This document shows positions 1 to 30,508 of a DNA stretch of 30,508 bases, piece by piece (positions within the stretch are counted from its first letter, which is position 1; each line of letters starts with the position of its first letter). Position numbers and translations under genes: made by a program. The DNA lies in assembly GCA_004022145.1 (NCBI GenBank), contig RCNU01000022.1; one strand, 5' to 3'. The notes beneath the pieces were generated by a model. That model saw nothing but the letters and a program-made list of their open reading frames with translations, had not been told where the DNA came from and did no database searches. Source of the stretch: Paecilomyces variotii. Its lineage: Eukaryota.

Positions 1-358
1 CACTCGGCTCGCAGAGCACTTTGTAAACGCGTAATTTCGTTGAAAGCATCATTGAGGGTTTCATGTAGATTCGTTTCAGCTTGCAGCGCAGCAGTAGTAC
101 TGGCGTCTGCGATTTCCAACTGGCTTCGCAGCCCATCGTTATCGGCTTCCAGAAGCACTTGTTCAACGCGTAGCGTCCGAAGACTGTCGTTAGCGATAAG
201 CTGCTTTGTCAAAGCGAGTGATTTCTCAAAGGTTAGTTCAAGCTGCGCTGTCCTTAGAGACACCTGACACTGTATAAGCAACAAGCAACTGTTATGATGC
301 TGAATATGCGGCATACCTCATTAGTGATAGCATCTGGATACTCAATAGCATGTGCCAT
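1..358 (-). CDS. 5' part of a coiled-coil-like hypothetical protein; runs off the left edge
   Basis: ATG at 358-356; exon 1 358-317 (MAHAIEYPDAITNE); GTATGC...CAG intron 316-264 (an in-frame alternative CAG lies 6 nt earlier); exon 2 is open to base 1 (VSLRTAQLELTFEKSLALTKQLIANDSLRTLRVEQVLLEADNDGLRSQLE...), rich in L/E/Q heptads. Confidence 0.7.
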
Positions 359-835
359 AGTGGCGGGGTAAGACCCAATGAATAAAAAAATGATTATTGC
401 AGCGACATAGGCTGCTAATACTTGTGATTTAGCAAACCTTGTTTAGCATATATGCAATAGAGTACAAGATTCAATTACTCTGGTAGTTCTTGAAATGTCA
501 CGGGTAAACAAAATCCCCGGATTTTCTACAGTAGTGTAACCTAGAGAGACTAGGTACGCACATCGGATACCAGATCGGATAGGGAAAAGAAAGAGAAATT
601 TTAGAGGGTGCTCTATCAAACTTGATTGAGTTTATTTCCTGAATAATAGAAAATAATTTGAATTAGCCATCTGAGGACTTCTATCTTAGGACCCTGAGTC
701 CGCAAATCATAAGCCTTCCGTGCACGGTTGCCCCAGGCCTTAGGTATTTATCCTCGCGACATTTGGACATTATTCAACCTCGCGAACCGGCATCCCTCGT
801 CTTTAGATTACTGCATAAGAAGCGCAACGGCAGCG

Positions 836-2656: not shown

Positions 2657-2679
2657 GAAAATAGCAGATTGGTAGAAAT

Positions 2680-4313: not shown

Positions 4314-4346
4314 GAGGAGAACCAGCAGTAAGTTACGATAAGATTA

Positions 4347-4374
4347 GAAAGAAAGAAAGAAAGAAAGAAAGAAA
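4347..4374. repeat. (GAAA)7 microsatellite just upstream of DBP3
   Basis: Seven direct GAAA units. Confidence 0.9.
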
Positions 4375-4393
4375 CTGAACGCTTCTTGGGAGA

Positions 4394-4404
4394 GAAAAAA
4401 TTTT
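4394..4404. promoter_or_regulatory. RRPE-like element GAAAAAATTTT upstream of DBP3
   Basis: Matches the AAAWTTTT rRNA-processing element about 80-90 nt upstream of a ribosome-biogenesis gene. Function is inferred. Confidence 0.5.
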
Positions 4405-4908
4405 CCCTTTTTTGGTAACTGATAACGGACTGAGAAGGGCGGCTTCCGACTAGCCTTCCTAAATCTTACATTAAGCTAGCCTAAATAGCAGTAGCGGTTC
4501 CGACGTCGATCGTTTAACCAACTTTAACTATTAATATTAATCTATTATTCTACATAAGTATAGACTCCTACAGCTGCCTTTTACGAGTTGCATCAATTGA
4601 TATATATGTATGTATATATATAGATATATATACAGTTATTATATTGCTACTCAGTTAAGTAATTAATTTTTTAGTATCTATTTTCCAGAAACACTACTGT
4701 ATATAAGGTAAAATTCGTAGTGTAACTTAGCGCAAAATTATCAAGCTACTATTATCCTTTTGACTACGCTAAATAAACATAACATTGGAGATGTTGTCCG
4801 TAGATAGTAATATTACTAGGTCACAAGGGAATTTGCCATTTTGCATAATACTACTCAATGACCCTGGGTCAGTTTAACTTAGCCAGCCAGGTATGTAATA
4901 TCAGAGGG

Positions 4909-6091
4909 CTAATCTATAGTACAGATGATCTTCCCCTTTGTACGGTTACTCTCGAGCAACTTATGCGCCTCCACGACTTGCTCGAAGGGAAAGGTTTTCT
5001 CGACGAAGATCTTGAAAGTGCCATCCCTGAATTTCGGCAGCGCATGTTCCACCAGTAAATCGCGCAGTTTCTTCTGGTACTGCTCATCTCGGCTCCTCAA
5101 CGTGCTGCCTTCGAATCTCAACCTCTTTCTGATGAAGCCGCTAATGTCAACACCGGCCGGCAGTGTCGAACCACTCATCTGTCCAAGCTCCACAATGCGT
5201 CCATCCCGGGCGGTTACGTCGAGGTTTCCTTGGAAATGAGCGGCTCCAACAAAATCAATAACCAGATCAACGCCCCGACCATTGGTCGCTTTTTGTATTT
5301 CCGATGCCCAATCCTGTGTTCGATAGTTATAACCGGCGGTCGCTCCAAGTTTATCCACGCAAAAGTCAATCTTCTCTTGCGATCCGGCGGTCACATAGAT
5401 AGCGCTTGCATTATCAGCCTTCGATAGCTGGATACCAGCTATTGAGACTGAAGAGGCACCGGCGTGCCAGAGTATCGACCGGCCTGGCTCAAACCCGCCA
5501 ACCAAATACATCGCTTGCGTGGCTGTTATCCACGTCTACTGGTACATGCGGATTAGTGATAATATAAACATAGCCGGTGAAAGGGGTTACTGCCTCTGGT
5601 ATTCCTGCAGTCTCTTCCCAGGACAATTCCGCGGGTTTATGAATGAGCATGGCGACGGATACTGCAATGTACTCCGCATAGGCACCTAGAATGTATAATG
5701 TCTCAACTCGATGCGCCGCAATAAGCGCTCAGGGTAAAAAGGCTAGACGGACCACCATAAGCCAAACCAAAGACATTATCGCCGATTGCGAAATCTTTTC
5801 CATCATAGTCACCAAAGCTTTCAATGGTTCCCGAAAACTCGACACCTAATGTACTGGGCGCCTGCGGCGGTACTGGATACTGGCCTTCACGCTGTAGCAA
5901 ATCCATGCGATTCAAACCGAACGCCTTCACTTTAACGAGCGCCTGGTTGCTACCAGGTACAGGAACGGGGATGGTGTCGACGAATAGTGCATCTGCCGGT
6001 CCCTTTCCACCCTTTATGCCTGTTGTAGAATGAGCAAATGAGCCTTCAGGGTCTAACAAAACTTACTAATTGCCCTCATTGTCCGTGCCAT
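4909..6091 (-). CDS. NADPH:quinone oxidoreductase, PIG3/zeta-crystallin (MDR) family, 4 exons (6091-6067, 6019-5753, 5685-~5591, 5535-4909)
   Basis: Spliced product MARTMRAISIKGGKGPADAL..VKVKAFGLNRMDLLQREGQYP..LGVEFSG..GLAYGGAYAEYI..GIPE(A)TWITATQA..HAGASSVSIAGIQL..GSTLRSR..KGKII. Introns GTAAGT..CAG, GTCCGT..TAG and GTAACC..TAG. Confidence 0.9.
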
Positions 6092-6670
6092 GTTGGAGAC
6101 AGCTGGTTGCGCAAAACAATTGGGATACGTCAAACGGTCTTGACTTTCCAGAGAGCTCGGAGTATTCGGAAAGATCGGGGAGAATAATAACAGTTTGGCG
6201 GGGGCAGTTCAACGTGACCCCGCATTATATAAGCCTACAATTTAACTAACTACATAGTTAGTTAACTAACTAACAGTTACCAAGAGCGGCAAAGGGTTTT
6301 ATATACTTTACATAATTTATCTTCTGAAGAGTTTAAGGTTTATACTTTATTCTATATGTATTTATATTTGTATATTATTTCTATTTTCTATAACTTTCTT
6401 TGTAGTGCAATAGGTATCTTAGTAGTTTACACCGTTGTGAACCACATAACTACAGTAGTAGTGGGTAGTTACTGGTAGACTGTTCGGATTATTAAATGCC
6501 GGACCCGACGCGGCCATAGCTCCAGGACACCTGTACACATCAATCAGTGTACGCTCCGAAGGACAATAGCAAGGGCAGTATCGGTCACATCAATCACTTT
6601 ACAACTCCCCCCTCCAGCCAGTGGGGTAACAAGTGTACAATACGAGTCCCATGGGATCAATCTGCCTACA

Positions 6671-7834
6671 ATGAAGTTGTTCCTTTTGGTCATTGCAGTC
6701 TTCCAGCTCTGCGGTTTCGCGTTCTGCGCAGGACCCGAGCTGGACAAATTCAGCAAATATCAAGCACAAGCCCGCAACGGTCACATCACGTTGGACGATT
6801 CTACGTACGAAGAGATTACCTCCAAACCTCGCGACTACCATGCTGCTATCCTTTTGACCGCCGTGGAGGCTCGATACGGCTGTACATTATGCCGTGATTT
6901 CCAGCCAGAATGGGAACTTGTTGCCCGGAGCTGGAACAAGGGCGCCAAGGCTGAAGATATGAAGTTGCTATTTAGCACATTGGATTTCACTAATGGGCGA
7001 CAAGCTTTTCAGAAGGTATCTCACCTCCTCCATCCAGGTCATGATAGGGTCTAACGACTAGTGAAGCTGATGCTACAAACTGCGCCCGTGGTTCTCCTTT
7101 TCCCGCCAACAATTGGACCATTTGCTCAAGTAGACGGGTCACCATTCAGGCTTGATTTTAGCGGGTGAGAACTCACATCTTCATTGCATGACCAGAGTCA
7201 GATGCTGACAATTCATTTTTCAGACCTGTATCTGCAGAGCAAGTTTACGCATGGATCAGCCGTCACCTTCCGGAGGGTAACAAACCACCACTGGTGCGGC
7301 CTGTCAACTACATGCGTCTTGTATCCGTACTCGGGATTTTGATGGGTACCCTCTCATTGCTGGCGGTCACGTCTCCTTACGTCGTACCTATCATCCGGAA
7401 TCGAAACCTTTGGGCCGCCATAAGTCTTATTGCAATCCTTCTCTTCACTAGCGGACATATGTTCAACCATATTCGCAAAGTCCCTTACGTTGCTGGTGAC
7501 GGAAGAGGGGGAATTAGCTATTTCGCCGGTGGCTTTTCAAACCAATTCGGAATGGAGACCCAGATAATCGCAGCGATCTGTAAGTGGCTCGCTCCCCAGC
7601 CTGCCTTCAATTCCGTCCCCCGCTTGGAACTATCCACTAACGGTGTTCCTAGATGGAATTTTGTCTTTTGCGACTATTGCTCTAGCGTTAAAGGTGCCCC
7701 GTATGTCGGATACAAAGGCTCAACAACTGGCTGTAGTTATCTGGGGGGTTATATTGCTTGGAGTCTATAGCTTTCTCCTCAGTGTTTTCAGGATAAAAAA
7801 TGGCGGCTATCCGTTCTTTTTGCCGCCATTTTAG
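6671..7834 (+). CDS. OST3: Oligosaccharyltransferase gamma subunit, OST3/OST6 family, 4 exons (6671-7015, 7067-7164, 7224-7579, 7653-7834)
   Basis: Signal peptide, thioredoxin-like CTLC, SGHMFNHIRKVPY, FSNQFGMETQIIAAIYG and C-terminal FRIKNGGYPFFLPPF. Three introns with CTAAC/CTGAC branch sites keep the frame. Confidence 0.92.
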
Positions 7835-8041
7835 GATTCCTACTAATGGTAGAGTACTAGAGCGCTAACTATAAGATTACATGAATAGAAGAAATCATTC
7901 AGAAATATTAAGAACAACAATAGTAACACCAGTAGCTTAGAAGTGCTTCTATACTGTGTGTATTGGGAAGTCACTCATTTTACTTTCCCTCGGCTCATTC
8001 AGGCTTATATAGCGTGCTAAGGACTGAGTACATATCAAATA

Positions 8042-9281: not shown

Positions 9282-9556
9282 TATTATAAAATAGTAGTTA
9301 AGACTAGTAAATTTTAGTATAATAAAGATTTTACTTTAAGAAAATCTTTAGAGATAATTTTACTTTAATAAAATTAAGCAGCTTAGAGAAATTATTTTTT
9401 AAGCCCTATATAAAATCTATTACCTTAATTAAAAAAATATAGATATATACTTTATATCTATTATATATACTAATACTCTTTTTCCTTAAATATTATTAAT
9501 TCTTTAAGCTATTAGATTAATTTAGAGAATTTTATTTAAACCTATTTTTTTTAACT
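9282..9556 (+). repeat. Copia 5' LTR (copy 1)
   Basis: 275-bp direct repeat of 21677-21952 and 22423-22697; starts TATT (RIP of TGTT). Confidence 0.85.
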
Positions 9557-10445
9557 AATTATAAGCTTAAGTTTATAATAGCTTAAGAAAAATAGCTATA
9601 TAATAAAAACTATTTTATCTTAAATATTTAAGTTTAAACTAGTAATAATAAGCTATTCTTATATAAGAGAATTTATAATAAAACTATTCTAATACTATAT
9701 TAAATATTAAATTTAATAGGGGTTAAATCTTATTAAAGGTTAAAATATTAACTTACTATTATTATATTTTTAATAAATAATATTAAAAATAAGAAAAAAA
9801 AACCTATTTTTATTCTTTTAAAGAAAAACTATAAAAAATAGTTTATTTATATAAAAAGATAGCTTATTAATAAAGATTACTAAAGAGCTATTAAGCTTAT
9901 TAAAAAGCTATATAATAATTAGTTTAATAAGGCTAATATAGCTACTTAATACTAGATTACTAAATATTTATTTAAAGATAATTAAAATAAATTTATTAAC
10001 TCTAATAATATATATATATTATAGAAGGCTCTATAAATAAAATATATAAAAACTCTTTTTAGTTAAAAGCGCTAGCTTATTTAATTATTTATATACTTTT
10101 AAATAACTCTTAAATAAATAATCTTAAATACTTAAAGTTAATTATAATAAATAGAAAAGAGAATTATAATATCTAATAATATAATATTTTTTTTAGCTAA
10201 GCTTAAGACTAAAATATAATAACTATTTTTAATATTATTTAAAAAATATATTATAATTAGAATAATAATTAATATATATAAGAATTTAAAAATAGATAAT
10301 ATTCTAGCTATTTTAAAAAAATAAAAACTTAACTTTAAATAAAATTAACTATTATATTCTTAATAAAAAATAAATAAATTCTTATTAAATATTATATCTA
10401 TAAAGAAAATTATTATATTAAAGATTATCTCTTTTTATTTATTAC

Positions 10446-10802
10446 TGTAAAGAGCCGGGGTAAGGAAGCTCTTTATCGGAGGTAACTAGTCGGACTAGTT
10501 AAACAGAATATAAGATAAGAGGTAAAGACGCAGGCGAGTAATAGTCTATATATAGTAGAGTTAAAGATCAGATTCAGTAGTGATCAGAATAAATTGCTAA
10601 TCTGTCTAACTTCTATTCCTTTAGGGGTTATTTATCTATCTATCTGTTCTACTAGGTCATCTAAATAACCTAGTCTTAACAGCTCTATCTATAACTAGCT
10701 GATCTAACTATTATATATAGCTCTAGTTATCTTATCATCTTTTATTATCTATCCTAGGTCTTAGCAGGTCTAGATTAGGTATTATAGCCCTAGTTCATAA
10801 CA
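10446..10802 (-). repeat. Gypsy 3' LTR
   Basis: Colinear, ungapped repeat of 17466-17822. Confidence 0.95.
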
Positions 10803-11212
10803 GTATCCCCCCCTATTAAAAGGCTCGTCCCGAGCTGTGTGAAGTTTATTATATAGATCTAGATATTTGGGCGTAGCTATAATAACAGTAGTAAATTGCT
10901 ATTAAAGCATGCTTATTATGTGAATTTATCTAATAATAGCTTTATTTTAATATTTTCACCTAGGAGATTAAAAGTGTTTCTATTCTTTGTTAATTAACTT
11001 CTGTCCTCCTGCCTATATATTAAACTATCCTTTCCCTAGTTCTGCAGCTTATTTGGTGCTGTTTTTAATAATTTAAACATAGAAATAGCTGACATTTATA
11101 TAGGTATATTAAAAATAGGATTTTTGAATTGTTTTCTTTATAGATCCTGCGCGTGCGCTTAATATAAGTTATAACCCTTCAGGTTTGTATAATAGTGCTA
11201 ATTAATATAACA

Positions 11213-12472
11213 ATGCCTCCTAAGCGCTTTAAGCGCGTTTTGTTTCTTCTGGGCTCTCCTAATAAGGCCCCTATGGCTAGCCCCAAGCTATTATAGCTGT
11301 CGACTAAAGATTACCTGCTCAATTATTAGCTTATAGATAATAAGTAGCTTAATAAGCTGTCTCCTCCCCCTATATCTCCGACTGCCGATGTGATATCAGA
11401 ACTAACAACTCCTTCTTTATAGATTACTCTATTTACCGCTATTAATAATAGTGATAGAGTGTCTCCGCCAGGGGTATCTGTAGAGGACCCCTTAGTAGAG
11501 GAGCACCTCCTATCTAAGATACGCAGGGATCGGTTTATATCCAGTGATATAATTCCTCTTATATATGAGGAGGTATAGGCTAGTCTATTGCATCCTCTTC
11601 GGAGATTGAAATGTAGTTATAATAATATTGCTCTTACTGTGCCCGCAGCAAAGGAAACTCCTGCTTAGCTAGCTAAAAAACTATAAAGGAGGTTAAAAAT
11701 AAAGGAGGTCCCTAGCACGGAGACTTAGGGAACTTAGGATACTATTATAACTTCTATTCCTGGAGTTAAAGCTACTATTAAGACGCCTCCTCCCCAGATT
11801 AATCCAGCTCTCACTGAGATAGTAATATTAACTACTGTTACTAATGCTGATACAGTAATAGATTGTCCTGCTGCCTTTAAGGCAGACCCTATTATAAATC
11901 CTTTTAGCCCAGAGAGTTTAACCAAAGACTTTCTTCCTGTCCCACAGGAGATGTATCTTTATTATTTAAAGGCCCTGGTGCAGGATTTAAAGCAATAATG
12001 TATCTATCCTTATATTAATACGAAGTATCTCTATTATAAGGGCTTTTATAAGCTATATATCCCTATACTGCTAGTGTATAAGGCCGAGTTAACTTATATT
12101 TAAAGTCTTAGCTAAGAGGCTTACCTCTTAAATAATTTAGAGTCTTTTAATAAGGCTGTAAATATATATATCTCTTCTATAGAGGCATATATGTAGAAAT
12201 CTATATCTAAGACTACTAAATACTAGCTCAGTGCTGCTGCTGTCTTACTAACCCTATTATATTTTAAATTGGAGTTATTGCATCTTCTCCAGGAGTTATA
12301 TTAAATAATCTGTTTATTAAACTATAATATCTTGCGTATAGCAAATATACTTACCCAGTTATAAGGACTGCCTCCGTTCTCTATTAAGGAGGAGGAAGAT
12401 ATTGTTAAGGGATTTTATAGTGATAAAGTAGCTAAATAGGATAATATTATAGGCCTATATTTAGAGCCTTAG
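11213..12472 (+). pseudogene. Antisense extra ORF inside the Gypsy element, about 410 codons, with a Zn2Cys6-like cluster
   Basis: ATG CCT CCT AAG CGC (MPPKR) at 11213; one frame with protein-like composition, broken only by TAG/TAA codons that are explicable as RIP of Gln/Trp/Arg codons. The end is approximate. Confidence 0.7.
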
Positions 12473-12599
12473 CTGGGGCTAGCTTAGTTGAATTAAATTA
12501 TTCCTATTAGGATTCCTTTCTTCTATATTCTCTTTAAAACTCCTAAACCTTATAAGAAAATTAGAGAAAGAGTAATACACATAGCAATATATTTAATAA

Positions 12600-15500
12600 T
12601 AGTTAAAAACCTAGTAGGAGAAAAGTACTATTACCTATCTGTCTTGCTTCGCTTTCTGCTTTATAGCTCTCTTTTACTTTGCCTTTATTTAGGCGGCTTA
12701 TCTGTATTAAGAGCTTTACTAGGGTTCTTATTGTAATACTCCTCTAAAGCTTTAGTCATATATATAAGATCTTCTAATATCTGCTATAAGTTCTTATATA
12801 AAGAATATCCTTTCTATTTCACTAGGAACTGTTTTTTTTTATAAAAAGTCTGTTTGCTAAGGATTTCTTCTACCTCTTATTCCTATTCTCCATTAATAAG
12901 AACTGGGTCTAGCTATTTAGGTTCTATTCCTTCTTATTAATTATAGGGCTCTAGCAGAGAGATATAAAACACCAGATATATCCTACCTAAGCTCTTTGGC
13001 AGTTATAATTAATATGCTTATTTTCTAATTATCTTAATTACTTTATAAGGTCTAGAAAATTAGTAGTCTAATTTCTTATTAGATTAATTAGTTTATAGAT
13101 TCTTTATCGATAGAAGAACTTAATCCCTAACTTTATATAATTTAGGCTTATGCTTTTTATTATAATACTTTACTTGCACCTTAATAGCATATTATAAGTG
13201 CTTCTCTAACTTTGCCCTAATATCTATTAATTCTTTAAGTTGTTCTTTAACAGCGGGAATATTTAATCTTATTCTTATATTGTATTTATCCCAGCTATTA
13301 AGATTAAATCTATAAAAGGCCTTAAATAGTAAGCATTTAGTAGTAGAATACTTTATATTATTATAGGTATACTCCGCTGCACCTAATAATAACGCCCAGT
13401 TATCTTAACAATAATTTATGTATATCTTTAGATAATACTCTAAGGTCTGATTTTAGCACTCTATCTGCCTATCTATCTGTAGATAAAAAGCAGTATTTAT
13501 TAATTAGGTAATTTGTATATACTAATAAAGCTTAGTCTAGTATTTATTAATAAATATTAATCCCTAATTTAAAACAATTAATATCGGGGGATTAAATTAG
13601 TAATATACCCTTTCTATAATTAGGTCAGCCAGGTCTTCTGCTATAATTGTTTCTTAGGTTAAGATATATAGAGCTATCTTAGAGTATCGGTCTATAACTA
13701 CTAAGATTATATTATACTTAACTCTTTATTAAGTTAATAATAGCAGGCTAATAATAAAATTTATTAATATATTTTACTATAGTCTTTCTGCTATAGGTAA
13801 TAAGCTTAACTGCCTATACAGCTTATGTTTAAGAATTTAATTCCTTTTACAGATATTACAGGTCTTTATATATTCTTATATATTATTCCACATACTTGGC
13901 CAGTAGAACTTTTGCCTAAGTAGCTTTTCTATAGTTTTAACTCCTTAATAGCTAGCATATAAATTATTATGATAAATTTATAGTAATTCTTGCTTCAGCA
14001 AATATTTATCTGGGATATAAATTTAATCTTATCTCTATAGCAGACCCTTACTATCTATAGTCTATTTAAAGCTTCTAGATTAATTAGTCTCTAAACTACT
14101 AATCTTCTCTATTATAAAGGTATCCCTCTGCTAGAGCTGTCTAAGCAATTCTAGAAGATTAGGCTTTAGAGAATCCTAGATTATTTCCCTATTAATAACC
14201 TTTAATACTAATAGTCTTAGCAGCAAGTGTTTGCGACTACCTGTGCTATTCTCTTTATTTAAAATATATAGTTTCAGTTTCTTTTATAGGGTAGGCAGCA
14301 GTCTAATCTCTTACTCCTCTTCTAAGAGTTTATAGTCTAGTCTCTAAGATAGTGTATTAGCTATATTTAAATAACCCGGCTTATATTTAATATAAAAGTT
14401 ATAGCCTGCCAGTAGTTTTGCCTATCTTATCTGCCTATTATTTAAAGTCTTTATTATAAAGAAGTAGCGCAGGTTTATATAGTCAGTCTATACCCGAGCA
14501 GAGTATTTATTATTATCTAAATAGTATCTCTAGTATTTAAAAGCTTTAACTATTACTAATAGTTCCTAGTCGTATATTTTATATTAATATTCAATTTCAG
14601 TAAATTTCCTTAAGAAGTATGTAACTAGATGCTACTGCCTTATTACCTTACTTATAATCTATAGTAGAATAGTAGCTAAAGCAAATCCTAAGGCATCTAT
14701 AGCTACTATAATCAGCTTCTCCAGATTATAATGCCGCAATACTAGCGGTTCAATAAATACAGTTTTTAAGTCTTTAAATACTTTCTGTGCTTTAAGTATC
14801 TATTCTAATAAGCCCATCTTTTTATTATACTTACTGCCCTTAAGCAAATCTATTAATAGCGTTGTAATAGAAGAGTAATTATAGATAAATCTTCTGAAAA
14901 AACTTGTAAATCCTAGAAAGACCTAAATATTATAAAAAGTCTTTAATATAGGCCAATTGCAAATTGTTTTAATTCTAAAGAAATCTATTTTAATTCTATC
15001 TTGTCCCACAATAAATCTAAGGAAGAAGACTTCCTCTTTATAGAATTTGCATTTGCTTAGCTTTATATATAAATTATGCTTATAAAGTCTCTCTAGCACT
15101 TTAGAGATATACTATTTATATTCTTTTTTATCTATTAAAAAGATCAGGATATTGTCTAAGTATATAATGCAGTATATATCTAACAGGCCCCTTAGCGCTG
15201 TATTAATATAGGCTTAAAATATAGCCGGAGCATTATATAATCTGAACGGTATAATAAGATATTTAAAATAGCCATATTAAGTTCTAAATGCCATCTTCTA
15301 TTTATCTCCCCTTTATATATATATTCTATAGTAGGCTTTTTGGAGGTTTAGTTTCATAAAGAATCTTACACCTACTAATTAATCTAGTATCTTATTTATC
15401 TATAGCAGTAGATAGCAATTCTTAATTATTTAGGTATTTAGTCCTTAATAATTAATACATAAGCGCAGTTTATTATCTTTTTTAAGGATAAAGATAATTA

Positions 15501-17442
15501 GTAATCTGGCTGGACTAGTTAAAGCCCAAATCTAACCTTATTATTATATGTCTTTTAGATACTTTTATAGTATATCTAGTTCTCTAGCAAAGTATAGGTA
15601 TAGAGGCCTCTATAGCAGTATCTCGCTGTTAATTAGCTCTATTATATAGGTCCTAATATCTTCTGGCAGGGGTAATATTTTAGCTCCCTCTTCTAAGAAG
15701 ATATCTTAGAATTATACATAGTATAGGGGAAATTAAATTTCTTCCTTATCTATTTTAATATATTCCCCTTATATATAATAAATCGGTTAATCTCGCGCTA
15801 TCTCTATAAATGCTTATAGGGTTTAAATCTTAACCTAGGGTAAAGCCTCCTGCTAATATCTCTAAGTCAGGCATCTCTAATCTATAATAGGATTATTGTA
15901 GTATAGCCATAATAATCCTAATATTATATTCTGGTTCTTCTTAATTATATTAAGTTCCTATATAGAAATAATTTGAAAGTTAATTTTATATTGTTTTATC
16001 TTCCCCTCTAAGTCCTTTACCTTAATAGTAACTGGGAAATAGCTATAGATTGGCATTGTTTAATCTCCTATTTATAAGGCACATCCGACTAGCTTTTAGG
16101 GGAACCCTTTATATCTATAGCATAGTAAAAAATCACAGTTAATAAAGTTAGTGTGTGCTTAGGAGTTAAGAAGTGCATTTGTTTTTATAGTATAATCTTT
16201 AATTAGTATATCTACTAAAATTATAAACTCTAGCTCTACGCCTTTAAGTTGCTGGAGCACCCTAAGCCTAACACCTTTATCTTTTAAAAATTCGGAGTCC
16301 TTTATAGTCTTTTTAGGACACTATTTACTAATATATCTGTTTTTCTTATAATTAAAGTATCGCCCTTCTTTTATTAACTATTCTCGCTCCTCTAAGATTT
16401 TAAACTTCCTTAGTTTGCATTCTGAATAGGTCTTTATAGAGGTTAACTAAAATAATTTATCCTTTTACTTATCCTTTATATATAAGTAGAATTAATCCTT
16501 CTCCCTCGCATAAAAATAAAATTATTCCTTCTTTTTATAGTCTTTCAATTGGGTTTTAATAGAGTTTTAAAGACTCTGTTTAACAACTATAGCTTCTGAA
16601 GCTAGTTATAATAGATCTGTCAAGATATATATATACTTAAACAACTAGTTCTATACATCTTCCCATAATATAGAGAAGAAAGTTTAGCTCTAGATATTAT
16701 CCTCTAGGGCTAATTTAGCTTTATAAAGCTTAAATTTATTGCGGAAGTCCTAAGCGGTCTGTTCTAGCTATTACTTTAGCCTCTAGAATTATATAGCGGA
16801 TATCTAGGGTCTAAATCTCAGGTCCTTAAGACAATCTAATAGCTACTGCTAAAATCCCTGCTAAGAAGTTATAGCTAAAGCAGGGGGTTTATAACTTTAA
16901 GCTATTCTATAATTATCCGAAAGCAAAGCAGCGACATAATTTATCTTACTTTCCTCAATTTAAAATGTAGATACATTATAGGTAAAGTATTACTCTATAT
17001 AGCGGCACTAATAATAGTAAGTATTTAGATCCTTAGCTCGGTATTAATAAGGTTCAGACAGTTTAGCGATAGATCTAGATTTAGGAGTTGCATTAATCTA
17101 TTTTATTAACTCTATAATTACAACTATACTTATCTTTTCTAATAATCCTTAAGTTGCATCTTATAGAGCTCCTATTGCTGTATTATTGACTTAACATAAT
17201 ACATCTAGCGAGATAATAGGTCCGGCACTAACAGTATTTAATTCTAGTTAAAGACTAGGGTCTATAATACTTCTTAGATTAGCTAGATTTCCTAGATCTA
17301 TAGCAGTTATTAATCCAGGCTAAGCGCCAGGCTCTGAACTATATTCAGGTTCGGATTCAAACCACACCAGTCTTAGGTTATTTATAGATTCTCTATGCTA
17401 ATCTTCAGCACTACTTCCTGATATCTCTTCTTTTTCTAATAT
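12600..17442 (-). pseudogene. Gypsy gag-pol in a single frame: Gag zinc knuckle, protease, RT, RNase H, integrase, chromodomain
   Basis: RYFNYKKNRYISK*CP = CCHC knuckle (~16315-16365); ALLNS*AHTNFI protease (~16141-16176); GDK*KMAFRT*YGYFKYLIIPFRLYNAPAIF* (~15215-15310); YLDN = YLDD (15151-15162); KKLDY*FSRPYKV = GPY/F (~13040-13078); E*EVEEILS..FLVK*KGY..NL* chromodomain (~12780-12885). The knuckle, protease, RT and chromodomain were checked to share one frame. Ends are approximate. Confidence 0.92.
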
Positions 17443-17465
17443 GCTGCTAGTCGAGCGATTCAAAC

Positions 17466-17822
17466 TATAAAGAGCTGGGGTAAAGAAGCTCTTTATTAGA
17501 GGTAACTAGTCGGACTAGTTAAATAGAATATAAAATAAGAGATAGAGATATAGGCGAGTAGCAGTCTACGCATAGTAGAGTTAAAAATCAGATTTAGTAG
17601 TAATCAGAATAAATTGCTAATCTATCTAACTTCTATTCCTTTAGGGATTATTTATCTATCTATCTGTTCTATTAGGTCATCTAGATAACCTAGTCTTAAC
17701 AGCTCTATCTATAACTAGCTAATCTAACTATTATATATAGCTCTAGTCATCTTGTTATCCTTTATTATCTATCCTAGGTCTTGGCAGGTCCGGATTAGGT
17801 ATCGTAGCCCTAGTTCATAACA
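17466..17822 (-). repeat. Gypsy 5' LTR
   Basis: Repeat of 10446-10802, followed by the TSD ATTAC. Confidence 0.95.
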
Positions 17823-21952: not shown

Positions 21953-23187
21953 TAAAGAATATTTTATTATCTTTTATATCTATAGTATAAGCTAATATAC
22001 CTTTTTCTCTAAGTATAATATTAGCCTCTTTAAGCTATTAAATTAGTTTAAGAAATTTTAATTAAGAACTTATTCTTTTTAAGTTAATTAATTAAAATAT
22101 TTTAAACTAAGCTATAAGTAGCTTTTATAGAGTAATAAAGATATTAGCTAATAATTTTATTTTCTTATTTTAATAATAAGAATATTTAATAAAGAGTATT
22201 ATTAAGAGAGAAAATAATATAAAAACTAATTAATTTATTAAGCTATAGCTATTTTAAGATATTATTATTATATATAATATAAATAAAAGCCTTTTTTAAT
22301 TCTTAAAGAAATATTTTAATATTCTTAAATTAAAAATATTATATACTTAAATATCTTATAAATATCTTTAATATCTTCTTAAACTTCTTTAAGATATAAT
22401 TAAGACTATTATATATAAGAACTATTATAAAATAATAATTAGAACTAGTAAATTCTAGTATAATAAAGATTTTATTTTAAGAAAATCTTTAAGAATAATT
22501 TTATTTTAATAAAATTAAGCAGCTTAGAGAAATTATTTCTTAAGCTTTATATAAAATCTATTACCTTAACTAAGAATATATAGATATATATTTTATATCT
22601 ATTATATATGCTAATACTTTTTCTTTTTAAATATTATTAACTCTTTAAGTTATTAAATTAATCTAGAGAATTTTATTTAAACCTATTCTTTTTAATTAAT
22701 TATAAAATTAGATCGGGATATAGCTCGGCCCAGCCGGGGCTAAGCTCAGCCTACCTGAAAAGCTCAGCCCACCCAAGAAAAATCTAGGTTCAGCTCAGAC
22801 ACTAAGTTAGTTTTAGTATAGTATTTAGGTGGGCTTAGTATATATACAGCTTATATAATTTATAATAAAGTTTTTATATTATATTGCAGTAAACTATATT
22901 TATTAAGAACTATATATAGCATATGCTCTGTACTATATTGTAATATATGCTAAGTATAGGTTAGAGCAACGCTAAGATATATATAGGGAGCTAGAACTGA
23001 TGTTATTCTGCGCAGTTTATTAAGGTGGTATATATAAAGGCGGTTGTTGAGTATATGCTGAAGCGATATTAGAATCTTATTATATAGAAGTTTATATTGT
23101 TTATATTATTTTTAACCTCCCTAATAATGCCTTTACCCTGCTTTTATAGTACTATAGTCTACTCTTTTATATTATTACTATATAATT

Positions 23188-24420
23188 ATGAAAATGCTAT
23201 TATATTTAAAGGAACTCTTTACCTATAATACAGTTTTATCAATAGGTAATCTAATAAACTACAGGTATTACTATAATAAGTATATCTTTATTTAATATTA
23301 AGCATATGCTAAATAAAAATAGGCCCAGTTCTTAATTTAAATCTAATATAGATCCCAGACTTATATACTACAGCTAAGCAAGAAAATAAGAAATCTAATA
23401 AATAGATATTATATATATATTAAAAGCGCGCTAAATATAGACAGTGCCTGTAATTATTGCTAAAAAAAATACTTATATACTAACCCCTAAATCTTCTATC
23501 TTAAGCGTAAATAGGAATATATAAGTCCTTTCTTTAAAATTAACTAAGCATATATTAAGCTTTTATAGTTACTAGGTATAGATAAACATAGATAGCCCGC
23601 TTATATACAATAAGGTTATTAATTCACAGCCTGCTATAAGTCTAATATAAGTTTTATATATATATAATATGCTAATAGTTGAAGTTATAATATTATATAA
23701 AGACTACACACCTGGGGGTAAGTATATTATTATCTTTAGTATATACTAGATATATATTAATCTACTATAATATTAAACTATAATATAGAGACTAATAATA
23801 TAATTATAGATAAAAAGATAATTAGGCTGCAGTAAGTTTAAGATCTATTCTATATATACTAGAGCTATACTAATAATATATAATATGCTAATTAAATACA
23901 TTTTACTTAGCAAGTAGTAAAACACCAACTTTATTTATAAACTATAGTAAGTCTTAAATATATATAGAGCTTATATTAAGCTAATATTTCTTCTAATGCA
24001 AGAAGTATATTAATTAAGAGTATTGCTATATTCTGCAAAAAAATAGCTTGCGCTAATAATAAGTTTAAAAACAGCTATAAGAGCTAGTTTTATTAAAGAG
24101 TAAGTTTAATATATGCTAATATATAAATAGGATCTATATACTATCTTTTTTACTATTTATATTGCTATTTATATTACTATTTATATATAATTTATAACTC
24201 TTAGCAGGCTTTTTAGATACATTTAATATATGCCTAATATTAACTTTAACTAATCTTAGCCTTTATTCCAGTATCCTATATCTTTATTAACCCTATCTCG
24301 CAAATATATAATAAGTATACCCCTGCCTGCATTATATATATGCTAACCTTATATAGACTAGAAATATCTTACTACTATAAAATAATAATAATAAAAATAA
24401 TAGTAAGTAGCCTTCTAATT
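23188..24420 (+). pseudogene. Candidate second multi-intron gene of the MULE, convergent with the transposase; product unknown
   Basis: ATG at 23188; plus-strand donors GTAATC 23246, GTAAAT 23507 and GTAAGT at 23718, 23832, 23947, 24100 and 24403, several followed by GCTAA branch-like sites and AG. Boundaries are approximate. Confidence 0.5.
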
Positions 24421-24760
24421 TATCTTATATATATACTAAACTAGGTTATAATATAGGTCTTATCTTAACTTTATTAAAGCACAGATAGTCTATATCTTAT
24501 AATAAATATGCGAGTAAATATACTGCCGATAAAGAAATACTAACTAAACTAGAATATAGCTATGCTTATAATTATAGCTATAGATATCCTTATAATATTA
24601 GTAGCTATAGTACTAAGTCTACTAATAAGTTTTTCTCTTTTATATATAGAATATATACTAAGTTTATATCTATAAGTTATGATTTTTTTTTCTAAGGATA
24701 AGTTTTCAGAGGCCTTAAATATATAGATATTTAAGCCCAGCTCTCCCCCAAGCATATGCT

Positions 24761-24856
24761 TAATACCGAACTTCGGTTTAATACTAAGCTCTTATGCTTA
24801 AAGATTGTTAATGCTGAACTTCAGTTTAATACTAAGTTTTTATATTTAAAGACTAT
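24761..24856. repeat. 48-bp tandem repeat, 2 copies
   Basis: taataccgaacttcggtttaatactaagctcttatgcttaaagattgt followed by a transition-only variant at 24809. Confidence 0.8.
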
Positions 24857-25288
24857 TTTTTTATATCTTTAAATAATTGCAATATAATATTTTTTATTTT
24901 TTTATTTATTCTTATTGTAGGGGAAAAGGAAATATATATATATATTTATTATATAACTATAGCTATATAGATATATATATTTATTATATAAACTACTGTA
25001 ATAATTCTTCTCTTTTTTGCTTAAATTCTTATTGCCTTTACTTTATTATTTTTCTTAATTAAATAGCAAAATTAGTCTCTGCTATTTCTTCTAATAAGGG
25101 TCCTCTATTATAGTATATATAAGCTCTATTTTATCCAGAATCTGTACTTAACTTTTAGATAATATATGCCGGATATAGAGTTAGTATATGCTCTAAATTA
25201 AAACTAGCAGAGCTATCTGAATTTAATAAAAGGGTTTAAACCCTTCTAGGTATTGGGACGGTATTAAATTAAATCTGGCCTTAAATAT

Positions 25289-25637
25289 AACTAGAACCTC
25301 TAGATTAACCCCTTCCTTAACCTTTATTTAGTATATACTCTGTACTTAATCTGCGTTGAGAATAATAATCTGAGTCTAATTCTTTAGAGCTTAGCTTAGT
25401 TTATTTAGTCCTAGATTAAACCTAGCTCTGACAACAACCGGAACCTCTAGATTAATCCCTTTCTTAATCTCTATTTAGTATATATTCTATATTTAATCTG
25501 CGTTAAGAATAATAATCTAAGTCTAATTCTTTAGAGCTTAGCTCAGTCCGCTTAGTCCTAGATTAAATCTAGCTTTAATAATAACTAGAACCTCTAGATT
25601 AACCCCTTTCTTAACCTTTATTTAGTATATACTCTAT
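25289..25637. repeat. 147-bp tandem repeat, about 2.4 copies
   Basis: GAACCTCTAGATTAA recurs at 25294, 25441 and 25588. Confidence 0.9.
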
Positions 25638-28600
25638 AAATATTTTATCTCTAGCTAATATATATTTAATAAAAGGTTTAGATAAAGATATTAAAACAAC
25701 CTTAAAATTAGCATCTTTATTAGAAGATTAATTATTATTATTATCTAAAGGTATATTATAGGGATTATTAAGATTAAATAATAAATAAGATTAATTCATT
25801 TAATAATTAGCAGCTCTTTAATTCTATTAGTCTAAAAGATATGTTCAGCATATGTTTAAAGGTATATTAAACTTTTATCTTACTATTTCTCTGTATCTAT
25901 TGGGAGATCTATATAGTATTACTATAGTTTTACTATGTATTATTAATATTATAGCTAAAAAGCTCTTATTATTTAATAATATCTTCTATATATTATTATA
26001 GACTAAATATAAATTAGCCTTATTAATATTTAATCTATACTAGATAGATACTAAGCATATGCTGAGTATAGATATACTGTTAAATAGCCCCCAGTAAAGA
26101 TAGGTTTCTCTCTATATTATAATTATCTTAGAAGTAACTACTTTTAGATAATCTAGTATGCTTTTAAGCATAACTCTACTATTTAAAAGGGATTTTTAAT
26201 ATTTCCCGTGATAATACAGTAAGAATCTATAGTTTTATTTTGCTTTAAAGCTATTTTTTAATATCTAGATATTCCTCACCCTATTAATATATAGTTTGAA
26301 GGATTTTTTAGTAAGAATATAAATCCTATAGATATTTTAGTTGATAAATAAGGGGATAGGATCTTTTAAATTTTTTATAGAAATTGCGTTCAATATATAT
26401 TTAGTAGAAGATAAGTATATGCTTAAGATATTTTTGCCAGTTAAGGGAAGAATAAATAGAATATAAGTAGTTACTAAAGCCTAAATATATTTAGTATATA
26501 TTTTGCATCTATTGAGATAATATTAACTAAATGCTTATTTTTTATATATATCTACAGTAACAGTCTATATCCCTTCTCTATTTAAAATATATGCCTATTA
26601 AATATATTAATATATAGCTTATGATAATATTTAAAATAGTAATTTAAATATTTAAAAATATATATAATAAGTTTGTAGAGAGACAAAAGTATAACAATAA
26701 GTATTAATCCCTAATATAAAGTTAGTATATGCTAAACGCATAATAAAGAGAAGTTAAATATATATTTAGCTTTAGAATTCCAGCTTGAGATCAAAAAGAT
26801 ATTTATATTTCTAAGTATTATTTTGTAAGTTAAATCTATTTTAAGATATTTAGCTTTTATAAATATTTTTACTTAAGCATTTATATAATAAATAATAATA
26901 TATTCTCTAGTTTTACTAATATTAACTGCGCAAATCTATTATTTATCACTTTTTCTGCGTTGGTCAAACTTATACTCTTATATAACCCCTATATAGTATT
27001 AGTATATGCAAAATATATAATAAGAATAGATTCTAACTGGTAATATCTGAACTAAATAGGTATTGCAGAAGTTTTTATTTTTAAATTAAATAAGCAATTT
27101 TATCCTTAATATTTAAAGAAGCTCTAATTAAATTTAGAGCTTAACCTTAATATTTTTGCTTAAATATATATACTTTAGGAGATATTAAAAATTTGTCTAT
27201 AAGTATCTGGTCAGCATATACAGAATATAAGCTTAAGGTATATATAATATACGCGCAGTTATAGTAAGAATATCTCTTTAATTAATTAGATCTATAAGTT
27301 TTTAAGCAAAATCTTAACTCAACTTAGTTAATAATAAAAGAAAATATATATAATCTTCTCAACAAACAAGAAGGATAAAAAGAAAATAATCCTAATTATA
27401 AGGAATAAAAATATTAATTAAAGCATTATATTCTTTGTATAGAACTTTAGATACACCTTAAAGATAGTTAAATCCTAGACCTATAGTTAGTATATACCTA
27501 ATATATATAGAGCAAATACCTACTATAAGTTATACGCCTTAAAGTAGTATAGTTAATATAAATACAAATAGATTAAATAAGAGTATTAGTACTATATATC
27601 CTATAAGCTACTAAAATATATAGATAAGGCATATAAATTTAAGCTATATATATAGAGATAGCTTATACAATATGCTATAATTTAAAATCACTTGCTAACA
27701 GGCAACTAATAAAGGTAACTAGTGGCTAAGGATATATTTAGTATATGCCGAGATTAAATATAGAGTTAAACTTACTTTATATTATTTAAAGATTACTAGA
27801 ATTTAATTTAAGCATACCTATATTTTATTTTCTAGATAAAAATAATGCCCTGCTAATTGTTAATTCTAAAAATAAAGAAATCTATTATATTAATTTTTAG
27901 TTTCTCTTTTAAGAAATTTACTAGCAAAAGTAGTATTAGATATATAGCTTACTTCTTTATAAAGCGTTTTAAAGATATTTAGTTTAATATAGCTATATTT
28001 ATAGCATTATCTAAATATATACTCCGGCATATACTTATAATATTTAATACCGCTACATTTATATGCCTAATAATATGCCTTGCTTTAAATTTTATCCTTT
28101 TTATCCTTTTAAAAAAGTAGAAGAGATAAGATCTTATAATTGCCTTAAATATAGAGCCTAAACTGGATCTAAGCTATACTTAGCATATGCTTATAATATA
28201 TTAAACATCTGCTTAAGATAAGGTATAGACATACCTTTAATAAAAATTATTAAAATATTTAATAAATATTTATACTAAAACAATTATAAGATAAAGAATT
28301 TTTTTAATAAATAAAATATAAGATACTACTAAAATAAGTTATTAGATATTTAGGAATAGATAACTTATCCTAAATACTATTAACTATAATCTTAGAGATA
28401 CTACCGCGGCTAATAATAATGCCTATAAAAGAAATAGCCTCCTAGATATGCTTAGTATATGCCTTATTAAAACTTATATAAAAAGAATATATCTAATCAA
28501 GTCCTATATAAAAAGGAAATTTAGGATATATTTTAAATTTTTTATCTTTGCTTTTTATACAGGAATAGATACTGCTTTAATTATTTATTATATTCTCAAA

Positions 28601-30508
28601 CTAGTTTAGGTGTGCTTTATAAAGGTTATAGTTCTATATAAGTTCGCTCTATAATAAATTAGCATCCAGTTTAAATATAATAGATATTAAATATATGCTT
28701 AGCATCTGCTAGGCCTCTATAGGAATTATATTAATATACCCGGATAAGAATATCATGCAGCTATTAACTAAGAATACTATTAATTTAGCTATCAGTTATA
28801 GTTATTTAGTTCTCAGCTATTTTTAAATATTTGGGGAAAAAGTAATAGTACTTAGCTTTATATTAGCTATTATATATATATATATTATAAATTCTAAAGA
28901 GTTTTATTGTATAAATATTATTATTAATCCTTAAATAGGCTAACCTTATATTAATTATGCAATCGGCTTATACTGAGCTTATACTTGATCTATGCGTAAA
29001 GTGGGTTAAGCTTAACCTAGCTAAGGATGAGCTCTAGGGTAGGCTGAGCTCCTAGGGTAGGCTGAGCTTAGCCCCGGCTGGGCCGAGATATATACCCAAA
29101 TTAGATTTATAATAATTTAAGAGAAATAGCTATATAATAAAAACTATTTTATCTTAAATATTTAAGTTTAAATTAATAGTAATAAGCTATTCTTATATAA
29201 GAGAATTTATAATAAGATTATTTTAATATTATATTAAGTATTAAATCTAATAGAGATTAAATTCTATTAAAGATTAAAATATTAATCTATTATTATTATA
29301 TCTTTAATAAATAATATTAAAAATAAGAAAGAGAAACTTATTTTTATTTTTTTAAAAGAGAATTATAAGAAATAGTTTATTTATATAAAAAGATAGCTTA
29401 TTAATAAAAATTACTAAAGAGCTATTAAGTTTATTAAAAAGCTATATAATAACTAGTTTAATAAGGCTAATATAATTACTTAATATTAAATTATTAAATA
29501 TTTATTTAAAGATAATTAAAATAGATTTATTAATTTTAATAGTATATATATATTATAAAAGGCTCTATAAATAAAATATATAAAAACTCTCCCTAATTAA
29601 AAGCGCTAATTTATTTAATTATTTATATATTCTTAAATAATTCCTAAATAAATTATCTTAAATACTTAGAATTAATTATAATAGATAAGAAAGAGAATTA
29701 TAATATCTAATAGTATAATATTTTCTTTAATTAAACTTAAAGCTAAAATATAATAATTACTTTTAATACTATTTAAAAAATATACTATAATTAAGATAAT
29801 AATTAATATATATAAGAATTTAAAGGTAGATAATATTTTAGCTATTTTAAAAGAAATAAAAACCTAAATTTAAATAAAATTAACTACTATATTTTTAATA
29901 AAAAATAAATAAATCTTTATTAAATATTATATCTATAAGGAAGATTATTATATTAAAAATTATCTATTTCTATTTATTATTTAGAGAAATATAAGAGATA
30001 ATTAAAAATAGAGAAAGAAGTCTTTTAAGCAAATATTTAATAATCTTATTATTTAAGATAAAATAATAATAGAGATAATTAATAAAATCTATAAGGAGAT
30101 TTAATCCTTAAAGAATAAGAGATTAAAAAATAAAAAATATAAAGTATATAATATAGAAGAAATCTTAAATATTAAAAAGAGCTAATTTTAATTAAAATTC
30201 TTAGTCTTAATTACCTTTAATAATTAAATCTTATATAAGATTACTTATCTTTTAAAAGATATTATTAATAAAAATTTATTCTAATAATATATAAATAATA
30301 ATACTAGTTTATATATAATTAATAAAAATTATTATTTTAAAGAATTATTAATTTAAATTTAATAGAGGTATATTTATATAAGCGGAGAAATCCTATATTT
30401 AAAATATATAGAAATAGCTATTTTAAGAGATAAGAATAGGAAGATATTAAACTTAGAAAATATATTATTTATATTAAACCTTAGGGTAAATCTTTTATTA
30501 ATTAAGAT

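Follow-up and report, generated by a model that had tools for sequence, protein, structure and literature searches.

A dispersed palindrome array in a Mutator-like transposon of Paecilomyces variotii: putative binding sites for an element-encoded protein

The DNA studied here is a stretch of 30,508 nt from Paecilomyces variotii (assembly GCA_004022145.1, contig RCNU01000022.1), which is referred to as the window and whose positions are used throughout. At 22714-29097 it contains a transposon of 6384 bp and 22% GC with terminal inverted repeats (TIRs) and the signature of repeat-induced point mutation (RIP), through which the palindrome AGCATATGCT is dispersed. The interval is best explained, judging from its sequence, as a single copy, inactivated by RIP, that belongs to a Mutator-like lineage of cut-and-paste transposons in filamentous ascomycetes. 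When compared with its relatives, the array is a real cis feature conserved across that lineage; this conclusion is drawn from its specificity, its phasing, the conservation of its positions and its presence in less mutated members. The palindromes are putative binding sites for a dimeric protein encoded by the element, a reading that is weighed below against the alternatives.

Both flanks of the element carry the identical 9-mer AAATTAGAT as a target-site duplication (TSD), which is within the 9-11 bp of Mutator-type elements, and the inverted ends, with arms of about 65 bp that share an identical core of 32 nt, fall within the tens to hundreds of base pairs of that type (78% complementarity over 93 nt when flanking DNA is included in the pairing). 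An earlier account made from the letters of this stretch (hereafter the sequence-only reading) had called the interval a Mutator-like element (MULE); the assignment fits the 9-bp TSD and the long inverted ends, and is made from structure alone. The dinucleotide composition is RIP-like (TpA/ApT = 1.31; (CpA+TpG)/(ApC+GpT) = 0.65). The ends themselves (22714-22800 and 29020-29097) form an unmutated island, being GC-rich with CpA kept, next to an interior and outer flanks that are heavily RIPed. As a check of copy number, contigs of four public runs from one organism were placed on the element at a likeness of at least 80%, which yielded 1847 to 4316 contigs per run with differences that were almost all transitions (in run X1, C>T 437, G>A 422, A>G 209 and T>C 205); the element is thus regarded as a high-copy family hit by RIP. 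The five perfect palindromes were untouched among the 40 differing places listed of 1981, a list from which the motif state of the other copies is not readable. The DNA at the insertion site is a RIPed repeat of 12-14% GC (9400-9500 and 22540-22640) with a second copy of the flank at about 9465, and public contigs that join 22705 to about 29102 represent paralogs of the flank that lack the insertion and read GCC where the two sides meet; the element therefore entered DNA that was already RIPed.

The window holds five perfect copies of AGCATATGCT, all of them inside the element (Table 1), exactly as the sequence-only reading had listed them. Dinucleotide shuffles of the whole window contained 0.07 exact copies on average, and none of 100 shuffles reached five. 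With up to two mismatches allowed, 29 of the 44 matches in the window fall in the element, which makes up 21% of its length, and about 20 RIP-type variants occur there besides the perfect copies. The nine transition variants named earlier (23050, 23547, 23738, 25183, 25330, 25624, 25847, 26414 and 26724) are present with one or two mismatches; of the seven copies that had been called looser, six have at most two (27001, 27213, 27740, 28026, 28454 and 28701) and the one at 27489 has three (AGTATATACC). Because the element is very AT-rich and bears a RIP signature, null models were built from its own composition, as Markov chains of orders 1-4 with 1000 simulations each. The exact 10-mer was observed 5 times (Markov means 0.02-0.31) and the RIP-degenerate pattern A[GA][CT]ATAT[GA][CT]T 24 times (means 2.7-7.5), counts that no simulation reached (0/1000 in each case).

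The degenerate pattern has 24 matches in the element versus 3 in the other 24 kb of the window, which include DNA that is equally or more RIPed. Regarding the anchor [GA]CT[AG]A, it is preceded by ATAT in 27 of 108 cases in the element versus 2 of 78 in a RIPed Ty3/gypsy retrotransposon of the window; the AT-rich blocks have 1/20 and 2/57, and host DNA has 1/73. That the array arose as an artefact of RIP or by chance, through C-to-T convergence in AT-rich DNA or through RIP-resistant contexts, is hardly credible. RIP does push many sequences toward TATA-rich words, and CA and TG are kept in 43% and 61% of the motif copies versus the approximately 30% implied by element-versus-host dinucleotide frequencies, but the explanation is refuted by the Markov nulls up to order 4, by the near absence of the motif and of ATAT-preceded anchors from the other RIPed DNA of the window, and by relatives of 38-47% GC in which the motif is dense and unmutated (see below). 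Among 23 copies, 10 retain CA, 14 retain TG and 5 retain both, and the central TA is invariant in 22, the C or G expected from a RIP origin never occurring there; the TA is thus ancestral and not made by RIP. The five perfect copies are therefore the survivors of about 25 identical ancestral sites. Descent from an ancient tandem array was tried as an explanation and rejected, as transition-tolerant local alignment showed the 120-nt flanks of the 23 sites to resemble each other no more than did controls that were shuffled or anchored at random. The flanks of the motif in the element show no similarity past about 20 nt, and only the 147-bp and 48-bp repeats are tandem.

A search of metagenome contigs with an exact 22-mer of the TIR retrieved no stretch. 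Relatives were sought in the same contigs by the motif pair GCATATGCTAA-N236-266-GCATATGCTAA, which gave 44 loci, and 12 of these, from two sample series, were grouped as family M by the similarity of their ends or sub-terminal DNA to one locus, L014 (L036 also matches at the ends and was not counted). The 12 loci adjoin NACHT-WD40, HET, PNP_UDP and DUF829 genes of the NOD-like receptor (NLR)/HET type, and therefore come from a filamentous ascomycete. The ends of family M have the form GGG-N4-5-AGCTCGG..., behind which lie ~21-bp subrepeats that end in CG(G/T)GGTC, and the TSDs match by eye at 8-9 of 9 bases in all six elements that have both ends in the locus. Short family-M elements of 0.8-1.3 kb consist of TIRs and runs of the motif and contain no open reading frame (ORF); these derivatives, which resemble miniature inverted-repeat transposable elements (MITEs), have two types of end, A (GGGCTTACAGCTCGGCGTGGTCC...) and B (GGGGTGCAGCT(C/G)...), and lie beside NACHT-WD40, PNP_UDP and HET genes. 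The P. variotii ends share the family-M layout, with three subrepeats, equal spacing and 17 invariant columns in an alignment of eight sequences; across the lineage the inverted ends measure 65-85 bp and comprise three subrepeats of about 21 bp. The sequence GGGATATAGCTCGG is close to the RIP product of GGGGTGCAGCTCGG, in that two TA fit and the change of the fourth base from G to A lies outside the usual RIP context.

L014 contains a family-M end, after which come about 6 kb studded with the motif, and has an interior that is collinear with and homologous to the P. variotii element: 26044-26940 matches L014 3498-2607 (57.6% over 898 nt, E = 2.7e-47) and 27057-27566 matches L014 2487-1980 (55.8% over 514 nt). 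The distance between the terminus and the first conserved block is 950 bp in the P. variotii element and 934 bp in L014, and the left half of the element had no significant match to L014. Beyond the limit taken for that element, at about 6400, L014 encodes a pogo/Fot1-type transposase at 6680-7615 (+) (DDE_1 1e-17, HTH_Tnp_Tc5 1e-7), and a further family-M-type end, inverted and with no matching TSD, is found at 8748; a nested or composite arrangement is possible.

Written as G[CT]ATAT[GA]C, the core GCATATGC has 218 sites in 17.5 kb of family-M elements (12.4 per kb) versus 8 in 121.8 kb of their flanks (0.07 per kb), a contrast of about 180-fold that is inflated by ascertainment, the loci having been found through the motif, which supplies two sites per locus where the loci hold 8-43. 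Against the other 24 kb of the window and the 122 kb of flanks as backgrounds, the motif is far commoner inside the elements, and the earlier proposal of an element-specific array is supported both by the null models and by conservation in less mutated elements of another fungus. Pairs of sites in the relatives lie 11 bp (88 pairs), 22 bp (28) or 33 bp (9) apart, and all other distances between 6 and 39 bp have 0-2 pairs each, except 37 bp (8). The 130 runs comprise 61 with one copy, 52 with two, 15 with three and 2 with four, and the spacers are of 25 kinds, TAA/TTA occurring in 41 of 88 pairs. From these distances and spacer counts the unit is not the isolated 10-mer of the sequence-only reading; it is an 8-bp palindrome, GCATATGC, that together with a spacer of 3 nt (most often TAA) gives the 11-bp phasing of the relatives, and the 'CTAA' of the P. 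variotii copies is accordingly site plus spacer. Degraded partners in the P. variotii element (at least 7/8 positions, transition-blind) were found at +11 of 6 of 18 sites and at -11 of 3 of 18, other offsets giving 0-2; GGCATATACTAAGCATATCTAG at 28460 (minus strand) illustrates this. An L014 site lies within 12 alignment columns of 11 of the 18 element sites versus 2.9±1.5 at random (1/5000), which is an upper estimate, since the aligner favours the pairing of identical 8-mers.

Phasing of this kind would also be left by a functionless by-product, in which the 11-bp unit GCATATGCTAA was spread through non-coding DNA of the family by slippage during replication and by gene conversion, and was inherited. 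In its favour are the strict 11-bp period, without pairs 10 or 12 bp apart, the frequency of TAA/TTA, which exceeds that of any other spacer, and the motif copies in the 147-bp and 48-bp tandems of the P. variotii element; it is nevertheless quite unlikely in view of single copies scattered at intervals of 150-300 bp along the 6 kb of each long element, of site positions shared by two elements that are only about 57% identical, of the variety of spacers around a conserved 8-mer, and of the contrast with flanking DNA. The targets of the plant protein VANC also grow by tandem duplication (PMC5735166), so that tandem growth alone is no proof of function. Among the remaining loci of the scan, L016, L024, L027 and L040 are examples of unrelated arrays or of repeats in tandem whose unit measures about 41-135 bp. 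Arrays of GCATATGC in unrelated-looking contexts occur in L012, L030, L040, L016 and L027, among others; within 1.9 kb of L012 (61% GC) there are 20 cores, some of them in 11-bp doublets, and the repeats of L040 measure about 100-300 bp.

The density in host DNA bears on the possibility that the element recruits a host factor, such as a protein of chromatin or replication, or a transcription factor that binds as a dimer (the core CATATG is of the E-box type). Palindromic, phased sites suit such a factor, and no element protein was found in the Pfam and phmmer searches. EBNA1 sites in oriP of Epstein-Barr virus form multi-copy arrays. In PMC2853575, AGCATATGCT is the centre of a palindromic binding-site probe for EBNA1, an unrelated protein dimer, so the sequence suits binding by a dimer; the analogy is one of DNA recognition only, a coincidence that implies no evolutionary or functional link to the fungal transposon. 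We consider a host factor very unlikely: a factor that regulates host genes should have targets in the host, but the 122 kb of host DNA beside family-M elements are nearly free of sites, and the 8 kb of host genes in the window contain no perfect copy and one loose variant, at 451.

Extended by its flanking bases, the motif is [GA][CT]ATAT[GA]CT[AG]A, which matches at 27 sites within the element and at 6 elsewhere in the window. The orientation of these sites follows the halves of the element (Table 1) and switches within the central zone of the 48-bp and 147-bp tandems and the (AT)n run; neither this strand bias nor the mimicry of a branch box was part of the sequence-only reading. Site plus spacer (GCTAA) resembles the fungal branch-point box GCTAA(C). 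Hexamers resembling 5' splice sites lie 22-36 nt upstream of 10 of the 27 sites versus 2.6±1.5 at random (0/5000), a distance window that was picked after the data had been viewed (6/5000 with 20-40 nt), and YAG follows within 13 nt at 17 of the 27 sites versus 7 of 27 mirrored sites. Both splice-like borders were found at 9 of 23 L014 clusters versus 2.7±1.5 at random (3/3000) and 4 in an antisense control. In long members the motif is located in sub-terminal DNA, in the central tandem-repeat zone and in short GT...AG intron-like cassettes (45-60 nt) whose positions are conserved, and in the short gene-less derivatives its runs fill the interior. Runs in L014 often lie in such cassettes, e.g., GTAAGT-atacgctta-GTATATAC-cta-GCATATAC-taataatatatAG; length differences between the element and L014 concentrate at the cassettes, and the blocks between them align with few gaps. 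The orientation split and the splice-like borders fit two convergent intron-rich genes, of which we infer the plus-strand second gene, in the left half, only from splice-like signals. It had been stated earlier that most copies fall in introns or other non-coding parts of two genes; this holds in so far as intron-like borders are statistically associated with the motif, but no gene is callable from the P. variotii copy.

Table 1. Features of the P. variotii element and of its short relatives (positions in the window unless a locus is named)
Feature	Position	Strand	Remarks
RIP-mutated TIR transposon, Mutator-like by structure	22714..29097	.	6384 bp, 22% GC
Target-site duplication AAATTAGAT, left copy	22705..22713	.	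9-mer identical at both flanks
Target-site duplication AAATTAGAT, right copy	29098..29106	.	9-mer identical at both flanks
Left terminal inverted repeat, GC-rich	22714..22778	+	three ~21-bp subrepeats (AGCTCRGCCYAVCC)
Right terminal inverted repeat	29033..29097	-	18-bp tandem, 2.6 copies, at 29024-29068
Perfect AGCATATGCT	22918..22927	.	no [AG]A after the palindrome on either side
Perfect AGCATATGCT, then AA	23301..23310	+	ATAAGT 22 nt upstream, ATAG downstream
Perfect AGCATATGCT	24751..24760	.	central region, without CTAA extension
Perfect AGCATATGCT	26054..26063	.	then GA
Perfect AGCATATGCT	28182..28191	-	reads GCATATGCTAAGTATAG on the minus strand, inside cassette 28174-28234
Left half	22945..24661	+	10 of 12 oriented ATAT[GA]CT[AG]A sites (22843-24653) plus, 2 minus
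Plus-oriented left-half sites	22945, 23053, 23304, 23475, 23667, 23883, 24111, 24338, 24431, 24653	+	
Right half	25181..28460	-	13 of 15 oriented sites minus, 2 plus
Minus-oriented right-half sites	25189, 25336, 25483, 25630, 25853, 26499, 26730, 27007, 27219, 27495, 27746, 28188, 28460	-	
48-bp tandem repeat, 1.9 copies	24760..24852	.	adjoins perfect copy 24751; central orientation-switch zone
(AT)n run	24932-24990	.	central zone
147-bp tandem repeat, 2.7 copies	25265..25705	.	one motif copy per unit (25330, 25477, 25624)
Intron-like cassette GTAAGT...ATATGCTAAT...ACTTAG, 79 nt	23832..23910	+	
Intron-like cassette GTAAGT...ATATACTAAACTAG, 42 nt	24403..24444	+	
Intron-like cassette GTAAGA...ACATATGCTGAACATATCTTTTAG	25832..25883	-	
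Cassette, four degraded 8-mers phased at 11 bp (GTATTTGC/ATATATAT/GTATATAC/CTATAGGT)	27481..27519	-	aligned to L014 2030-2075
Intron-like cassette GTAAGT...GGCATATACTAAATATATCCTTAG, 50 nt	27726..27775	-	aligned to L014 cassette ~1784-1830
Intron-like cassette GTATGT...AGCATATGCTAAGTATAG, 61 nt	28174..28234	-	aligned to L014 GTAAGC...CTCTAG, 18-nt length difference
Internal region homologous to L014 (1980-3498), probable large-gene remnant	26044..27566	-	
MITE-like derivatives, 0.8-1.3 kb	L022 5289-6083, L025 9392-10521, L028 11117-12388, L029 6023-6935, L044 12062-12899, L010 5364-6622		

These observations are the strength of the main rival, a role at the RNA level, in which the copies would act in the pre-mRNA of two convergent genes, GCUAA(C) serving as branch point and hairpins shaping splicing or feeding or evading RNA silencing. 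It is not exclusive of protein binding. The split of orientation by half, the splice-like hexamers and YAG around the sites, the paired borders of the L014 clusters, the cassette lengths that vary between flanks aligned with few gaps, and hairpins of -9 to -11 kcal/mol are all in its favour. However, the base after CTAA is C or T in just 10 of 25 sites, the strongest conservation lying upstream, in GCATAT, and 4 of 23 palindromes, including the perfect ones at 22918 and 24751, have by eye no CT[AG]A on either side. The motif also fills the ORF-less derivatives and sub-terminal DNA outside introns, the 61 single-copy runs are unable to form the hairpin, and about five likely introns in the host DNA at 1-8000 have ordinary branch boxes and no palindrome, one candidate (451, minus strand) resembling the motif. 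We thus rate an RNA-level role as rather unlikely. The three copies of the 147-bp tandem have no recognisable 5' splice site. The motif does not behave as a branch-point box alone, that is, as CTRAC confined to introns and free of constraint upstream, given its variable last C, its upstream conservation, its abundance in gene-less elements and the perfect copies without CTAA; on these features the array is not merely a splice branch site. A possible host intron at 380-451 (-), GTAATT...GCATATATGCTAAAC...TATTAG, is cassette-like (the palindrome with one extra AT) and is the sole such case among about six candidates.

The longest ORFs of the element have at most 81 codons. Six-frame translations with X at stops gave no Pfam match in the P. 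variotii element, and none was found in six frames of L014 1-6600; phmmer against 1.84 billion representatives returned no hit for an element protein, nor did word-indexed protein searches or the PDB. The transposase, second gene and VANC-like product assumed or suggested by the sequence-only reading were thus not detected in the element by Pfam, phmmer, word-indexed or PDB searches, a negative that is informative, the same six-frame procedure having recovered RVT_1, RNase H, integrase and Tf2-type SH3 from the neighbouring RIPed Ty3/gypsy at 30% GC, and is not decisive at 22% GC with short exons. In the stretch homologous to L014 the translations show 26% amino acid identity and share three stop columns, as RIP of conserved Gln or Trp codons would give. 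A pattern D-x-T-[YF]-K...FLI...G-x-D, seen by eye in both translations, may correspond to the start of the MULE domain. Over 860 codons a purine/pyrimidine (transition-blind) codon model identified the frame of the RIPed gypsy correctly, but it was too weak in 240-nt windows (gypsy pol z=0.4, element z=4.2, AT-rich block z=3.1), and its segmentation into frames could not be interpreted. Stop density is low in minus-strand frames at 26487-26037 and 26937-26667, with similar stretches on the plus strand too, and the periodicity of transversions in five gap-free blocks between the element and L014 was not significant (p=0.14-0.78).

The Ty3/gypsy long terminal repeat retrotransposon used as control lies at 10400-17600 (-), is RIP-mutated with about 30% GC (a single frame, with X at stops, matches RVT_1 (2e-17), RT_RNaseH, Integrase_H2C2 and SH3_Tf2-1) and has no copy of the palindrome motif. 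Positions 1-8000 of the window hold ordinary host genes of 44-50% GC with few short introns (51-73 nt), among them a candidate DEAD-box helicase ORF at 2832-4343 (-), in whose translation VLDEADRML and HRIGR are visible.

We put the probability that the palindromes are binding sites for an element-encoded dimeric protein at roughly 0.55. A binder encoded by the element is favoured because the sites are sub-terminal, central and intron-like and are concentrated in gene-less derivatives, as is typical of cis-acting protein-binding sites of transposons; the plant precedents VANC/VANDAL21 and TnpA/Spm have in common with the array its location in non-coding DNA, one orientation per array and expansion by tandem duplication. 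Such binding could serve self-recognition for transposition and/or regulation. Several points weigh against this reading, apart from the ascertainment of the loci and the bias of the aligner given above. None of the protein searches identified an element-encoded binding protein. The CTAA extension follows the presumed direction of transcription, and the motif is tied to splice-like borders, both as an RNA-level signal would be. No two well-kept sites lie 11 bp apart in the P. variotii element. Finally, a direct repeat of the palindrome with a 3-nt spacer forms a perfect 8-bp hairpin, so that the exact 11-nt spacing fits an RNA or DNA structure, or 11-bp slippage, as well as it fits helical phasing.

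Before RIP, some 25 copies of GCATATGC were present in the element, most of them as AGCATATGCT with AA behind it, and RIP converted CA and TG to TA in the majority, both escaping in the five perfect ones. If sites for an element-encoded protein are what the array represents, the autonomous element would encode a dimeric sequence-specific DNA-binding protein (a transposase or an accessory protein), which would bind the GCATATGC sites, cooperatively where they are phased, and binding would mark the DNA as 'own family' for transpososome assembly and/or the control of chromatin and transcription. Sites would accumulate where the coding sequence stays undisturbed, and in introns site plus spacer (GCTAA) would probably double as the branch point.

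Regarding known systems, VANDAL21 is not known to have long TIRs, whereas the P. variotii element has them; both are of the Mutator-type superfamily, here by structure only. The 9-mer YAGTATTAY, to which VANC21 binds, is arrayed with a single orientation in terminal and intergenic non-coding DNA and in introns, often as tandem repeats (PMC5735166). The array described here likewise consists of a family-specific short motif that is enriched in the element and rare elsewhere, placed in non-coding DNA in one orientation and partly tandem (the 147-bp tandem provides three copies), but it is a palindrome with strict 11-bp phasing, whereas the VANC21 9-mer is non-palindromic. In contrast to VANDAL21, no VANC-like or other protein was detected here by the searches named above, and the host defence includes RIP, which has no plant counterpart. 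An anti-silencing role like that of VANC, suggested by this analogy, is unlikely. En/Spm has classical 12-bp repeats, CACTA ends and a 3-bp TSD, unlike the GGG...AGCTCGG ends and 9-bp TSD of the present lineage. TnpA binds dense clusters of a motif at Spm ends (bioRxiv 10.64898/2026.08.24.746577); dense sub-terminal clusters of a short motif that are kept by non-autonomous derivatives are common to both systems, the Spm sites being bound by an element-encoded protein. Unlike in En/Spm, the motif here extends across the whole 6 kb of the long elements, including intron-like cassettes, and is not confined to the ends.

A 9-bp TSD and long TIRs are also features of MuDR of maize and of fungal MULEs such as Hop of Fusarium, and the two convergent genes of MuDR, which read inward from its TIRs, match the orientation switch of the sites; no MULE transposase domain was, however, detected here by six-frame Pfam searches, and to our knowledge neither a dispersed palindrome array nor intron-rich genes have been described for MuDR or Hop. 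Introners are introns that are nearly identical along their full length and spread through unrelated host genes. The cassettes resemble them as short introns that share sequence and seem built from a repeated module, but only the 8-mer module is shared, and the cassettes were seen in one transposon lineage. Literature searches for the 10-mer AGCATATGCT and the 8-mer GCATATGC returned primers and probes only.

Several transposons of plants use arrays of sites for the proteins they encode to recognise copies of themselves and to avoid being silenced, and we know of nothing comparable described in fungi, where defence differs (RIP, quelling, trimethylation of histone H3 lysine 9 (H3K9me3) and 5-methylcytosine (5mC)). 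A bolder version, which we hold to be unlikely as a whole, is that a dimeric protein coats its own DNA through phased GCATATGC sites and thereby counters genome defence, with introns built from the sites and an 11-bp unit that would be dock, branch point and hairpin in one. If true, coating would let the family recognise itself and counter heterochromatin, DNA methylation and perhaps the homology recognition that precedes RIP, and it would be a fungal counterpart, independently arrived at, of the anti-silencing by VANC and TnpA in plants. In this lineage the 8-bp site is sharply defined and strictly phased, and the short natural derivatives, which are made up almost entirely of sites, are an easy substrate for assays of binding and excision. 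Runs of GCATATGC with an 11-bp period provide a simple signature for finding the family and its MITE-like derivatives, even when heavily RIPed, and introns seemingly built from a binding-site module bear on how transposons gain introns.

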